Assembly (NCBI GenBank): GCA_020725385.1
Contig: DYFC01000010.1
Coordinates: 1 to 64,000 of the forward strand
Origin: Nitrospira japonica
GTDB taxonomy: Bacteria > Nitrospirota > Thermodesulfovibrionia > Thermodesulfovibrionales > SM23-35
DNA length: 64,000 nucleotides
Reading direction: 5' to 3'
The position numbers and the translations under genes are program-made. Below, one piece after another: positions 20,667 to 25,749 of the stretch (position 1 is its first letter; each line of letters starts with the position of its first letter). Under the pieces are notes generated by a model. That model was not told where the DNA came from and ran no database searches. It saw only the letters and a program-made list of their open reading frames with translations.

Positions 20667-20775
20667 AAAAACAAAAAAGCCACGAAAGCTGATGCATTCA
20701 TTGCATCTTCAGCCTTCGTGGCTTTGAATTTCTATACTTTAAATTTTCTTCTTTATACCGGACTTCTTGCCCGGC
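20667..20775 (-). promoter_or_regulatory. structured 5' leader / attenuator, copy 1
   Basis: GCCGGGC-AAGAA-GTCCGGT hairpin, then GCC-ACGAA-GGC overlapping a terminator stem ending GCTTTCGTGGCTTTTTTGTTTTT; homologous to 25548-25638. Confidence 0.75.
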
Positions 20776-20783
20776 GTGTATTT

Positions 20784-20813
20784 AAGATAATAAAAGCTGT
20801 TTAAATATGTCAA
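20784..20813 (-). promoter_or_regulatory. sigma70-type promoter of the TonB operon
   Basis: TTGACA-N18-TATCTT directly upstream of leader copy 1. Confidence 0.55.
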
Positions 20814-20862
20814 TACATAACATTTTAGACTACTTATAAATTTTTGTTTTTGGATTTGATTA

Positions 20863-22764
20863 TTACACGTTATCAAGCATCTCTCTGACTTGAATCAATA
20901 ATTCCTGTGGTAAAATAGGTTTTTGAATAATATATATGCCATTTTCTGTAACACCTTTCTTCTTAAGAATATTGTCGATATATCCGCTAATAAATATCGC
21001 TTTAATCTCGGGTCTTATTTTTTTTATCTCTTCATATACTTCTTTGCCATCTTTTTTCGGCATCAATACATCCAAAATTAAAAGATGAATTTTATCATTA
21101 TTCTCATTAAATATTTTCATAGCATCTTCTCCATCAGATGCTAACAGTACGGTATATCCAAATTTCTCAAGTGTATTTTTTATAAAGCTTCTTACCTGAA
21201 TATCATCTTCGGCAATTAGTATAGTTTCATTGCCCGTTGGCATATCAATCTGTTTCTTTTGCACGTTTTCAATAGGCTTGGATTTAATTAAAGGAAAATA
21301 TATTTTAAACAACGTGCCTTTACCTAATTCACTATATACATTTATATAACCTTTGTGTTGTTTTACTATGCCATAGACTGTAGCAAGTCCAAGTCCGGTA
21401 CCTTTACCTAATTCTTTTGTTGTGAAAAAAGGCTCAAAAATTTTCTCTCTGGTCTTAATGTCCATACCACAACCTGTATCCTGAAAAGACAGTTCTGCAT
21501 ACTCTCCCGGCACACCATATCCATGGGCTGAAACATATAATTCATCAATAGTTATAACATTTGTATGAATTAATATTTTTCCGCCATCAGGCATTGCATC
21601 CCTTGCATTTGTAGCAAGATTCATCAATATCTGATCTATTTGAGCTACATCTGCCATAATTATTAAATCTTTCTCTAAAAGATCAACTAAGATTTCAATA
21701 TCCTCTCCAATAATTCTTGAGAGAAGTCTTTCAGAGGATCTAATAATTTCATTTAAATTAACAGGCTTAGGAGAAATTATCTGTTTTCTACTAAATGCAA
21801 GAAGTGCCTGGGTAAGGCTTGCTGCTCTTTGAGAAGCTGAGAGTATTTGGTCAAGCTCAAAATTTTTACCAATATTCATTTGTAATAGATTTCCATATCC
21901 AATTATTGCTGTCAGTAAGTTATTGAAATCATGTGCAATTCCTCCTGCAAGTTGCCCGATTGCATCCATCTTTTGTGAATGAAGAAGACGTTCTTCAAGC
22001 TTTTTTTGTTCAGTAACATCTCTTGATATTTCCAATACAGTTAAAGGCTCGCCATTTTTATCTCTAAGAGCAACATTTGCCGTGCAATGAAAGTAGTGAA
22101 TATTGCCATTTTTATCTATAACACTCGTTTCATGTTTATGTATTTTTCCATTACTGAAAGTCTTAAGCGTCAGACATGGAGACGGTTCACAGGGTTTGTT
22201 TCTTCCATGATATGCTTCATAGCACTTTCTGCCTATAATATCAGAACCAAAAATTTCTTTTGCAATTTCATTTGCCCAGATAATATTTAATTCTTTATCC
22301 ATCATGCTCATATGATCACTAATAGAGTGTAACATGGCTTCGAGTTTTGCTTCGCTCTCCCTTAATGCGATTTCAACTTTTTTAAGAGATGTTATATCCC
22401 TGAATGAATAAAGATACCCGGCAATTTTTCCTTCGGTATTTCTTATTAGGGAAGCACTAATTATTACCGGTACAATATTACCGTTAGCATTCTTAATAAG
22501 TGTCTCGGTCTCAAAAATATTCTGTCTCTCATCCAGAGCTTTTTTAACAATACAATCAGTTTCACACATTTCAGTTTTCATGACATCTTTACAGTACATG
22601 CCACATGCTTCATGTGCTCTAAATTCTGTTATTTTTTCTGCTTCTGCGTTGAAATAAACAATTCTCATCTGGGTATCGGTAAAAAACACCGCATTGGGTA
22701 AAGAGTACAGAATAGCTGAAGCGCTTACTCCTACAGGGAATTCAATAAGATTATTTGTTTTCAT
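20863..22764 (-). CDS. cytoplasmic hybrid histidine kinase (PAS-PAS-HisKA-HATPase-REC)
   Basis: AHDFNNLL H-box, [23 protein letters not shown]-terminal receiver ILDVLMP. Confidence 0.93.
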
Positions 22765-22781
22765 GTTTTCTAAATTATGTT

Positions 22782-23375: not shown

Positions 23376-23887
23376 TATTCTATCAATCTTATACTAAATT
23401 CACAAAGTTCATTGCCGGATATCATGCACCGGGTTTCCTGAACAATATATGCACTAACTGATTTTTTAAATATTGCAGAAAGAATACCGGAAATAAATCC
23501 ACAAGTAACATAACAAACCGGGGTTGTCCGCCGCCCGTATTTAGCCAGCCAGCCGGTCACATAATACGAAGAGTTAGAATAAACTTTTCCACCGTTTTCT
23601 CTTAATTCCGAAAAATCAATAATTCCAAACCCCATAAATTTATACAATTCAACTGCTACTTTTATTTGTTCATCTATGCTTTCTTTACTTAAATGACTTA
23701 CTATATAGTTTTTAAAATTATAATAAAATTCTTCCTGCGCAGCTTTAACAATAATTGAATATGCATCAATTCCTTCAATTTCTTCAATCGCTTTTATAAG
23801 CCCGCAGTTATAATGATGGCAGTGGAGGGATACACCGACATTGTCAAGCTTCAAAATATTCAATTCAGGGGAAAAATCAATGTGCAT
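23375..23887 (-). CDS. V4R-domain protein with HCHHY motif
   Basis: HCHHYN near N-terminus, GFG, PVCYVTCGFISG and ETRCMISG..LCEF. Confidence 0.75.
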   Translation of the reverse strand: MHIDFSPELNILKLDNVGVSLHCHHYNCGLIKAIEEIEGIDAYSIIVKAAQEEFYYNFKNYIVSHLSKESIDEQIKVAVELYKFMGFGIIDFSELRENGGKVYSNSSYYVTGWLAKYGRRTTPVCYVTCGFISGILSAIFKKSVSAYIVQETRCMISGNELCEFSIRLIE

Positions 23888-24011
23888 ATAATTTATTTAA
23901 AATTAACTTATCTATAAGAAAATTTCTACATCCAAACAAACTTATAGAATTAATGATATTTTATACTATTTCCAATAACAATAACTTTTTATTGCTTAAA
24001 AACATTAAATA

Positions 24012-25382
24012 TTAAAATGTTCTCCAGGTAGTTCCTCCATATGTATACGTTGAACCATGATAATGGCAGCAATTGCAATTTATTGCTGTTCTTGTGCTCG
24101 TGCATTCTCCCCATTGACCCGAATTATGGCAATTACCACATCCACCGCTGGTATAGAATGGGTCGCCTGCCAAGGAATCGTGATGGACTATATACCAGTG
24201 ATCGTTCTGACATGAAGTGTTAAAATCGTAATCGTCTTTATGACATTTATTGCAAAGATTCGAAATGCTGTTTGATTTTAAAGTGTCATAGTTAGAATAT
24301 GGTGTAGAGCAGGATGGGGGTACAAATGGGTCCATTGTTGTGATACTTCCTAAATTTGTTCCATTCACTTCTGTTCTAATAAGCATCAAGTTTGATGAAC
24401 CATGAGGTTCGTGGCAATCCGTACACGAAAGTACTTTACCTAAAGCAGTTCCATATGGATTTTTCATACTGATTGCAACATCCGCATTTCCCTTCCCGTG
24501 TTTTTCAACATTCCAATTAATAGTTCTCAAATTTCTTCCAAGTGTCGTGCTGTAAATCGAATTTGTTGAGTTGTGGCAATCTGTACAAAATGTATTATAA
24601 TCTGGCAAATTTGTGCCATCAGAAGTAGTATTATTTGCAGGTTCATATGTCGTTACACTATTGTACCAGTAAGGTGACTGATAATTTGTTGTAAAGTTTG
24701 GATTCATTTTCTCGGAAGAATCATCTCCCCATAAATTATTATGGTCCGAAGGCTTAGAAATTGCAGATTTTGTTGCATCATATGAATTTGAAAGTGGAGG
24801 TTTCCCACAACTTTTTTTTGCAATATGTACATTATGACAACCCGAACATGGATTAGAACCTGATGGAAAACTTGTAAATGTTTTGGTTCCGGAAAGCCCG
24901 GTGATAAATCTATATACATCATATAAATTATGATAAGAAAGGCTGTTAAATGCCTCAAAAATATTATTAGGTAATGAATCGGGATTACCGCCAAAAGTAA
25001 TACTATAATTAAAATTACTAAAAGATGTGGTTTGAAGTGTTCCGGTCCCAATATGACAGTAAAAGCAGACATTATCACTCTGGGAATATGGTTTCAAAGT
25101 TATACCGCTAAAATTATCAGCTAAAAGTTCATATGCGCTCGGTCCGCCAACAGGTGCGGGTTCTGTTCCACCAATCATTCCATGTTGTTCATGACAGTGG
25201 GCACAATTGCCTCTTGAGTAACCAAATGCGGCAATACTTGTACGATTAACTCCATATGTTGTATTTCCGTGCGCAGAATCAAGATATTTACCGCAATAAG
25301 CTTTTTCAGGGCATATAAAAAAATATAAAGCTAAAAATAGAAATAGCAAGCGAAAACCACTTTTATTACAGAAATCCGTCAT
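24012..25382 (-). CDS. exported octaheme c-type cytochrome
   Basis: Signal peptide; 8 CxxCH motifs: CAHCH, CFYCH, CSGCH, CTDCH x2, CNKCH, CGNCH, CNCCH. Confidence 0.9.
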   Translation of the reverse strand: MTDFCNKSGFRLLFLFLALYFFICPEKAYCGKYLDSAHGNTTYGVNRTSIAAFGYSRGNCAHCHEQHGMIGGTEPAPVGGPSAYELLADNFSGITLKPYSQSDNVCFYCHIGTGTLQTTSFSNFNYSITFGGNPDSLPNNIFEAFNSLSYHNLYDVYRFITGLSGTKTFTSFPSGSNPCSGCHNVHIAKKSCGKPPLSNSYDATKSAISKPSDHNNLWGDDSSEKMNPNFTTNYQSPYWYNSVTTYEPANNTTSDGTNLPDYNTFCTDCHNSTNSIYSTTLGRNLRTINWNVEKHGKGNADVAISMKNPYGTALGKVLSCTDCHEPHGSSNLMLIRTEVNGTNLGSITTMDPFVPPSCSTPYSNYDTLKSNSISNLCNKCHKDDYDFNTSCQNDHWYIVHHDSLAGDPFYTSGGCGNCHNSGQWGECTSTRTAINCNCCHYHGSTYTYGGTTWRTF

Positions 25383-25547
25383 AAAACAACCCCCTATATA
25401 TCATTAATAATAAGTTTAAAAAAATATATTATTTCTATTTTTCAATTTACTTAATATATCGTTATTTGTACTTTATTTATTATCATTTGTTAAAAAATAT
25501 TCTTTTTTCTTTCTATAAATTTAACCTAATAACGCATTTATCATGTC

Positions 25548-25638
25548 AAACAAAAAGCCACGAAAGCTCTGCATTCTCTGCATTTTTAGCCTTCGTGGCT
25601 TTTAATTCTAATTACGAATAAGTGGACTTCTTGTCCAC
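25548..25638 (-). promoter_or_regulatory. structured 5' leader / attenuator, copy 2
   Basis: GTGGAC-AAGAA-GTCCAC hairpin, then GCC-ACGAA-GGC overlapping terminator ..GCTTTCGTGGCTTTTTGTTT; extended -10 TGcTATAAT at 25644-25652. Confidence 0.75.
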
Positions 25639-25749
25639 AATTAATTATAGCAAATATATAAAATTATTTTCCATATTTTGTGAATAACTAATGACTATAG
25701 ACTCTTATGCTACGAGGGAATTGTTTGCTTCATTCAAGAAGTTAAATTC

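Follow-up and report, generated by a model that had tools for sequence, protein, structure and literature searches.

The GAA-loop leader, a widespread candidate leader RNA of nickel/cobalt uptake genes in Nitrospira japonica and distant bacteria

Two neighbouring transcription units of Nitrospira japonica start with the same small structured leader, one ahead of a TonB-dependent receptor gene and the other ahead of a multiheme cytochrome gene. What is this leader, and what does it control? The window, by which we mean the whole stretch of DNA analysed, comprises 64,000 nt of contig DYFC01000010.1 (assembly GCA_020725385.1). Both units lie on its minus strand, as an initial annotation had stated, and the shared design that it described is present in the sequence as claimed. 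Sequence comparison indicates that units 1 and 2 are members of a widespread, apparently undescribed 5'-leader RNA family, which we named the GAA-loop leader. We consider it very probable that the element is a cis-acting leader controlling nickel/cobalt uptake genes.

In unit 1, a promoter-like site (TTGACA-18-TATCTT, 20784..20813) ends 8 nt ahead of hairpin 1 (20757..20775), whose 7-bp stem includes 2 G-U pairs and closes an AAGAA pentaloop. A non-conserved, purine/AT-rich spacer of 31 nt (20726..20756) leads to a long hairpin with its 5' arm at 20711..20725, an apex hairpin TGCA-ATGAA-TGCA carrying a third GAA loop at 20693..20705, and its 3' arm at 20690..20676, after which a T-run extends to about 20667 (3' arm plus T-run, 20667..20690: TTTTTTGTTTTT). 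Inside the 5' arm lies hairpin 2, GCC-ACGAA-GGC (20722..20712), which is able to fold alone. Unit 2 has the same parts: a promoter-like site (TGGAAA-18-TATAAT, with TG preceding the -10 hexamer, 25644..25673), hairpin 1 with a 6-bp stem and an AAGAA loop (25622..25638), a 5' arm (25588..25603) with hairpin 2 within it at 25599..25589, an apex hairpin TGCA-GAGAA-TGCA (25570..25582) and a 3' arm plus T-run (25552..25568). All of these features are on the minus strand.

The sigma-70-like promoter matches end 6-8 nt ahead of hairpin 1 in the two units, the basal 15 bp of the long hairpin are identical between them, and their alignment, promoter included, has a mean column identity of 78%. The minimum free energy fold of each unit consists of hairpin 1 plus a single long hairpin, at -45.5 kcal/mol (z = -7.05) for unit 1 and -36.9 kcal/mol (z = -7.10) for unit 2, and in either case 0 of 200 shuffles were as stable. 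The 5' arm (GCCAYGAAGG) can alternatively fold alone in both units as hairpin 2, with 3-4 bp and an ACGAA loop.

The resemblance of the two units goes beyond chance: a 13-mer core of the 5' arm was seen five times in the N. japonica genome (2.46 Mb, 34.7% G+C), against a composition-based expectation of about 0.015. A search with nhmmer and with a covariance model (R1, built from alignment A2) gave five strong copies in this genome plus one weaker terminator-like relative. The initial annotation had described the design correctly, but there are more than the two copies that it reported, and the element is not restricted to this genome. Model R1 matched 47 of 61 genomes of the same order (own genome counted), or 36 of 61 at E <= 1e-4; within the same family it matched 33 of the 36 remaining genomes, and 9 of the 12 remaining families had hits as well, a carrier usually having several copies. 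A second model, R2, for which 48 hits were used, found the element in 57 of 101 genomes sampled from a Desulfobacterales-type order around one Desulfosarcinaceae-titled genome. A scan of the genome collection with a two-arm pattern, which permitted 14-44 nt between the arms (interiors of about 15 to 40 nt were observed), matched at least 120 stretches, with a chance expectation of about 17 over the whole collection. Among the matches listed there were 86 matches in 80 loci, a few of which look like chance, under titles such as Desulfobacterales, Desulfosarcina, Desulfobacca, Syntrophobacteraceae, Nitrospirae/Nitrospirota, Thermodesulfovibrio, Clostridia, Peptostreptococcaceae, Thermovorax and Acidobacteriota. 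Thermovorax subterraneus and Desulfoluna butyratoxydans are among the cultivable organisms named there. Tandem copies of the element also occur.

The element had been taken for uncharacterised, and Rfam 15 agrees: no family matched the leaders in the window at the gathering score. Over 20300..25900, only a tRNA and four chance-level matches were returned at E <= 10, and one of the latter, mir-2059 (18.4 bits, E = 7.8), overlaps the unit 1 long hairpin. When the elements of 8 cross-phylum loci were compared with Rfam 15, which covers the NiCo, mini-ykkC and cobalamin families, none matched at E <= 1. The GAA-loop leader is not described in the available parts of the literature searched, including PMC11672702, PMC11109978, PMC11247825 and PMC8934654, a search that motif lists printed only in supplements could escape. 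One Desulfatibia-titled record has a GAA-loop leader and, about 5 kb further downstream, a cobalamin riboswitch (107 bits; locus L072, 6441-6628, plus strand), so that two RNA controls are neighbours there.

The structure was examined in a set of 124 elements, made up of 86 pattern hits and 38 model hits from the own genome and relatives. A hairpin of the hairpin 1 type (stem of at least 5 bp, N1-2GAA loop, at most 110 nt upstream) is found in 63 of the 124, which is 15-fold over shuffles (4.2 +/- 1.9, maximum 9); windows 300 nt further upstream gave 6 of 116 and the antisense strand 3 of 124. Its loops are ATGAA (15), AAGAA (13), AGAA (9), ACGAA (6) and others alike. Loop position 2 is free, and the loops are not self-complementary. 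The spacer between hairpin 1 and the long hairpin ranges from 3 to 93 nt, with a median of 35, and the earlier description of it as AT-rich and non-conserved was confirmed. Alignment A5 has 47 distinct rows and was fitted to the model; where an element has no hairpin 1, its row consists largely of gaps in that part. In A5, each of the 7 pairs of hairpin 1 is changed on both sides, and 91.6% of cells are paired. The covariation of the whole structure was matched by 0 of 500 shuffles, and slid controls drop to 32-52% paired. The compensatory stem changes, which the initial annotation had read from two sequences, are seen at every pair in this alignment. Of 62 elements, 35 have an exact TTGACA that starts 34-45 nt ahead of hairpin 1, whereas control windows have none; hairpin 1 is therefore the predicted 5' end of the transcript.

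The long hairpin has the make-up of an intrinsic terminator, a stable GC-containing hairpin directly abutting a U-run, and is a predicted terminator. Among the 38 model hits its median energy is -25 kcal/mol, and at least 8 T occur in the next 12 nt in 37 of 38. Fold and T-run agree with the earlier proposal that hairpin 2 forms the 5' side of a terminator. The basal stem is paired in 93.5% of cells, and its Y-R pair covaries (C-G in 39 rows and U-A in 8 rows of A5). An apex loop ending in GAA is present in 44 of the 124 elements, compared with 4.3 +/- 1.6 for shuffled interiors (a control run on the unrefined count of 46), and is commoner with hairpin 1 (31 of 63) than without it (13 of 61). 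The third NNGAA loop that had been reported is real in both units and is not a universal feature of the family.

The two arms are unequally conserved, and the aligned sequences show that the 5' arm is constrained beyond its pairing in the long hairpin. In 32 rows that were not pattern-selected, A87, G92 and G93 of the 5' arm are invariant, with 3'-arm partners T21/C10/G1 for A87, T24/C6/G1/A1 for G92 and C26/A3/T2/G1 for G93. G92 is thus opposite U in 24 of 32 rows, as a G-U wobble, and A87 is often opposite C. Pairing with G1 of hairpin 2 requires C or U directly after GAAGG, a position that the pattern left free, and 112 of 117 distinct sequences have one of these two bases there. Hairpin 2 is compatible in 93.6% of cells.

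The elements are oriented with respect to genes. Of 115 elements, 93 have a co-oriented open reading frame (ORF) of at least 60 aa that starts at most 150 nt downstream; the mirror control gave 42 of 116. Together with the TTGACA counts, this bears out the claim that the leaders are promoter-proximal and oriented. Among 116 elements having a downstream ORF, the first one starts at most 40 nt past the element in 63, and a Shine-Dalgarno sequence often abuts the T-run. A same-strand open frame ends at most 150 nt upstream in 41 of 114 elements.

The genes downstream are largely of one kind. We clustered the first three downstream ORFs and annotated them via cluster representatives. The clusters are ABC/FecCD/CbiO-type proteins (29), TonB-dependent receptors (21), S-adenosylmethionine (SAM) methyltransferases (21), DUF4198 proteins (11), Phenol_MetA_deg outer-membrane proteins (11), ExbB (10), ExbD (10), TonB (8), OprB porins (7), CbiQ (6), SBP_bac_5 (6), small WxEHNxxH proteins (5), permeases (5) and LarB-type proteins with a LarE-like neighbour (4). 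The 96 distinct first ORFs include 15 methyltransferases, 10 CbiM, 8 MetA-type proteins, 7 OprB, 4 ExbB and 4 TonB. Further types in the regulon are CbiM/PDGLE, BBP2 porins, NikMN, NikA-like binders, a NikL-like protein and His-rich proteins, and no efflux family is within the top 25 families of first ORFs. The metal-uptake association that had been proposed from the window is conserved across phyla. Covarying structure, fixed orientation, coherent genes and distant taxa are the general marks of a leader or riboswitch candidate, and the family displays each of them.

Two groups of proteins behind the leader share a sequence motif. The commonest first gene (15 of 96) encodes a SAM methyltransferase with an N-terminal WY.LW.EHN.YH motif (contig C24, 177-959, plus strand, and homologues). 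Helical proteins of 65 residues with an invariant W.EHN..H (L020 1621-1815, L021 1152-1349, L045 3548-3754) have no Pfam or NCBIfam match, and such a protein is a candidate nickel-binding protein.

Which metal is concerned was approached through the nickel-responsive repressor NikR. NikR_C was found in 8 of the 61 relatives, all of them among the 14 motif-less genomes, and in none of the 47 motif carriers; with the stricter motif set (E <= 1e-4, 36 genomes) the number is still 0. The NikR genomes span five families and kin are not independent, hence we report a pattern and not a statistic. In the second order, NikR is present in 3 of 101 genomes and the motif in 57 of 101. Because the distributions of motif and NikR are complementary, the metal can be narrowed to nickel, possibly nickel/cobalt. 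LarB/E, the NikL-like protein, the His-rich proteins and the complementarity to NikR point to nickel. In several motif genomes the small WxEHNxxH protein is encoded directly behind the leader, and in 3 of the 8 genomes with NikR its gene is at a distance of 3-5 kb from nikR, which fits a single regulon under two alternative controls. In its distribution over the lineages searched, the element takes the place of NikR.

The five strong copies of the own genome differ in their surroundings. Unit 1 precedes a TonB-dependent receptor gene (18516..20363) and two DUF4198 genes (17773..18561 and 17044..17766), all on the minus strand; the gap from its T-run to the listed start codon of the receptor is about 300 nt, and the gene block occupies 17044..20363. 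The copy at the start of contig C24 is a near-identical duplicate of unit 1, in which the T-run is followed by GGAG, six bases and the ATG of a methyltransferase gene. It precedes the methyltransferase, a TonB receptor, a NikA-like binder, a second TonB receptor, DUF4198 and a NikL-like protein. C24 1-170 and window 20665-20832 have 2 mismatches across promoter and leader, and the sequence beyond differs. Judged by this comparison, the copy looks like a recent duplication of the leader ahead of two TonB-receptor operons, and the duplication probably explains the assembly break there. Near the end of C24 is a full but diverged copy, in which the letters of the hairpin 1 stem differ and hairpin 2 is ACC-ACGAA-GGT, a G-C to A-U exchange with both sides changed.

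The copy on contig C6 is without hairpin 1 and precedes an OprB porin and CbiM-PDGLE/CbiQ/ATPase genes. About 470 nt separate this leader from the porin start (C6, about 2190-2560), with several short inverted repeats that by their sequence look like inserted elements of the miniature inverted-repeat transposable element type. The first 25 nt or so beyond the C6 leader resemble the sequence beyond the C24-end leader. The sixth, weaker relative (E = 0.37 with model R1) closes a 52-residue Cys/His-rich ORF on C24. This Hpn-like ORF (8746-8904, plus strand) has 24 His, and its terminator has the same 5'-arm core and an AGAA apex loop; locus L016 has an arrangement similar to that of this His-rich ORF and its closing terminator.

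Unit 2 lies about 170 nt ahead of the multiheme cytochrome gene (24012..25382, minus strand), and the initial annotation had this cytochrome co-regulated with metal uptake. The claim was not borne out: homologues of the cytochrome exist in 13 relatives, and the element was found near 0 of the 10 loci examined with filters off, although the sequence upstream of one locus extends for just 113 nt. Possibly unit 2 is an orphan, or it was recruited only recently. Past the cytochrome gene, at 20863-23887 on the minus strand, are genes for a V4R-domain protein, a 197-aa protein and a PAS-PAS-HisKA-HATPase-receiver hybrid kinase; of the V4R-V4R-kinase series annotated earlier, Pfam confirms one V4R domain and gives no match for the second, 197-aa protein. 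A tRNA-Pro(TGG) gene (25750-25828, minus strand) lies about 75 nt upstream of the unit 2 promoter-like site. Elsewhere in the window there are a 6S RNA (10824-10999, plus strand; Rfam RF00013, 50.6 bits against a gathering score of 46.4) and, towards the window end, tRNA-Val(GAC) (62392-62466, plus strand).

How might such a leader act? Our preferred explanation, held tentatively and at a little under an even chance, is that the nickel (possibly nickel/cobalt) genes are under factor-dependent antitermination at the predicted intrinsic terminator. Termination itself, the role of hairpin 2 as antiterminator, the sign of the response to nickel and the kind of sensor are all inferred. Transcription would start a few nucleotides ahead of hairpin 1. 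By default, the 5' arm (GCCAYGAAGG) would pair with the 3' arm and, with the U-run, RNA polymerase would stop. In read-through, the nascent 5' arm would be kept as hairpin 2, together with hairpin 1, until the 3' arm emerges. A capturing partner would be needed for this because only the tiny hairpin 2 competes with the long hairpin, and the holder would recognise the (A)NGAA loops and report nickel status. Since the downstream genes are importers, the partner should act at nickel scarcity. We take it to be a trans-acting factor that binds under such conditions, most simply a protein encoded elsewhere in the genome; a protein losing RNA binding on metallation would be the easiest way to act at low nickel.

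A trans-acting antiterminator had also been the proposal of the initial annotation, and it stands as one option only: the search brought up no candidate, and two proteins failed the phyletic test. A small WxEHNxxH protein was rejected as the trans factor; it occurs in 39 of 61 relatives, including NikR-bearing motif-less genomes, and was not found in the own genome. The leader-linked SAM methyltransferase was rejected as a general, PyrR-like trans factor; it is present in 17 of 61 relatives, all motif-bearing (17 of 47 motif genomes), and in 0 of the NikR genomes. The earlier exclusion of ANTAR and CsrA holds, as their loops differ and neither protein was found in the own genome. ANTAR (PF03861) had 0 matches there, in an assembly that is 96.6% complete, and the same search was positive in 3 of 5 other carriers; CsrA (PF02599) likewise had 0 matches in the own genome, with hits in 3 genomes used as controls. 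The NusG family is represented by a canonical protein on contig C34 and a paralog on C10 (65498-65773, plus strand, 60.6 bits), and an hfq gene is present as well; neither NusG nor Hfq has a link to the element.

Elements without hairpin 1 form a subclass that is common in the window's own family, with the C6 copy as its representative. Their 5' tail is short and contains a conserved YAGAAU, the loop at the apex is AGCA or AGUA, and C is opposite the invariant 5'-arm A (13 of 47 rows). Past the T-run is a 5'-arm-like box that pairs with the 3' arm and shares bases with the Shine-Dalgarno sequence. For the duplex between the 3' arm and the region of the ribosome binding site (RBS), z is below -2 in 18 of the 61 elements that are without hairpin 1 and in 5 of the 62 that have it, and the C6 duplex has -16.6 kcal/mol (z = -4.1). 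Masking of the RBS by the 3' arm was rejected as a general feature, the mean z being -0.22 for the 62 elements with hairpin 1. It may be that the response of the hairpin-1-less form is opposite to that of the full form; alternatively, the box past the T-run may serve as a further binding site instead of a pairing partner.

Several observations weigh against control of nickel uptake by factor-dependent antitermination. On this model, capture of the 5' arm would mask the RBS in the hairpin-1-less subclass, which the model does not explain, and 61 of the 124 elements are without a strict hairpin 1. No candidate factor emerged. Hairpin 2, whose sequence is as first claimed, has only 3-4 bp, with two inner pairs invariant and 2 cells changed on both sides; because its own covariation is almost nil, it was deduced from the asymmetric conservation of the arms. 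Some copies are not plain leaders, one of them closing the 52-aa His-rich gene, and unit 2 and the C24-end copy are without a conserved downstream partner. NikR and the motif coexist in 1 of 5 carrier genomes from other phyla, and one of the 3 NikR genomes of the second order also has the motif. The choice between nickel and cobalt is left unsettled by annotation, the NCBIfam matches being to cobalt CbiM and below cut-offs.

The closest rival dispenses with the protein. It is possible, though less likely than a protein-assisted switch, that the GAA-loop leader is a new, widespread riboswitch class in which two or three (A)NGAA mini-hairpins assemble around a small ligand or metal ion and sense nickel status directly, in a layout akin to the two ACGR hairpins of guanidine-II; binding would alter termination, and RBS access in the hairpin-1-less subclass. 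It stays close because conservation is broad and no protein is linked: core and loops are near-identical in at least four phyla, which suits a universal ligand over a co-evolving protein, and no associated RNA-binding protein was found in or near the regulated operons. The variable linker (3-93 nt) and the tandem copies are also in its favour, and in the hairpin-1-less form the 3' arm, released by capture of the 5' arm, would mask the RBS, as expected if Ni2+ represses uptake. In the full form, however, hairpins 1 and 2 stabilised by the ligand would switch uptake on, the wrong sign if the ligand is nickel, so that the ligand would have to signal nickel shortage; moreover, the conserved part is very small, loop position 2 is free and the loops are not self-complementary, unlike those of guanidine-II. 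If the elements were instead stand-alone small RNAs, terminated transcripts of about 90-115 nt acting in trans as Hfq-dependent regulators or sponges, read-through would be incidental. Every copy does have its own promoter and a strong predicted terminator, with a purine-rich spacer and a U-tail, the genome has an hfq gene, and some copies look like orphans (unit 2, the C24-end copy, and those of two genomes in which the element lies 78-79 nt upstream of mfd). We consider this improbable, with co-oriented ORFs within 150 nt of 93 of 115 elements and within 40 nt of 63 of 116, where the Shine-Dalgarno sequence often abuts the T-run and read-through is the only visible route of expression; and the spacer, the expected seed, is non-conserved, whereas the loops and the 5' arm are conserved.

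Conservation of the repeat arms in sequence, and not in pairing alone, would also be expected of a DNA operator, an inverted repeat at which a dimeric nickel-responsive repressor acts as a roadblock and the RNA hairpin is a by-product. The position just downstream of promoters and the occurrence where NikR is absent would suit it. Yet the distance between the arms varies, they are unequally conserved with G-U and A-C oppositions kept, the U-run is constant, and hairpin 1 covaries as RNA around a fixed loop, which makes an operator very unlikely. Slightly less credible still are ordinary strong terminators or a dispersed repeat without regulatory role. One copy does close a His-rich gene, 41 of 114 elements have the end of a same-strand frame within the 150 nt ahead of them, and C24 starts within a near-identical duplicate of unit 1, all of which such a reading would accommodate. 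It is opposed by a same 10-nt core that fronts one functional gene class in several phyla, by the orientation of the elements, by the same-loop companion hairpin at 15-fold over shuffles and by a distribution complementary to NikR.

Nickel is required by hydrogenase, CO dehydrogenase and Lar-type enzymes, and we know of no account of how nickel import is controlled in many NikR-less anaerobes. If the GAA-loop leader senses nickel status directly, it would be the first known RNA sensor of nickel import and a functional replacement of NikR in Nitrospirota, Desulfobacterota and many Clostridia, and the few known metal riboswitches would gain a class for metal uptake. Should a protein take part, as in the antitermination that we favour, it would be a new kind of nickel-responsive RNA-binding regulator. 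On either reading, the element marks nickel regulons in uncultured genomes, and it ties the WxEHNxxH methyltransferase, the small WxEHNxxH proteins and the OprB/MetA-type porins to nickel.

The genes behind the GAA-loop leader resemble those of NikR regulons, with nickel ECF/ABC importers, TonB receptors, ExbBD-TonB and small His-rich or nickel-binding proteins; NikR, however, is a DNA-binding repressor, whereas the leader is an RNA structure downstream of the promoter. Like CsrA/Rsm sites, it has a short purine loop motif several times per RNA. The CsrA motif is GGA, in contrast to the GAA of the leader, and a CsrA gene was not found in the own genome. Guanidine-II (mini-ykkC) RNAs have two tiny hairpins with the same ACGR loop, a variable linker and an expression platform overlapping the second hairpin. 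The GAA-loop leader is similar in its tiny hairpin pair, its variable linker and the overlap of the second hairpin, but its (A)NGAA loop is not self-complementary, and it precedes metal-uptake genes in place of guanidine exporters. In the available part of a 2024 metallostasis review, no RNA other than the NiCo (czcD) riboswitch is named as a sensor of Ni/Co; it forms a four-way junction and switches on efflux, and its metal specificity is disputed (PMC11672702). The GAA-loop leader, in contrast, consists of two or three hairpins ahead of uptake genes and has no match in Rfam.

Like the ANTAR sites of EutV, NasR and AmiR, the GAA-loop leader has two hairpins with similar loops, the second within the 5' strand of a terminator. 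According to the part of the account in PMC8934654 that was available, ANTAR sites are two hexaloop hairpins whose loops have A in position 1 and G in position 4, termination is prevented when both hairpins are captured, and in eut a linker longer by 20 nt abolishes antitermination. The GAA-loop leader departs from this in the absence of a detectable ANTAR-domain protein from the own genome, in its penta- and tetraloops with A1 and G3 and AYGAA in hairpin 2, in a linker of 3-93 nt where that of ANTAR sites is short and constrained, and in the third GAA loop that it often carries at the terminator apex. Its architecture is nevertheless a variation on the same scheme of two hairpins over a terminator.

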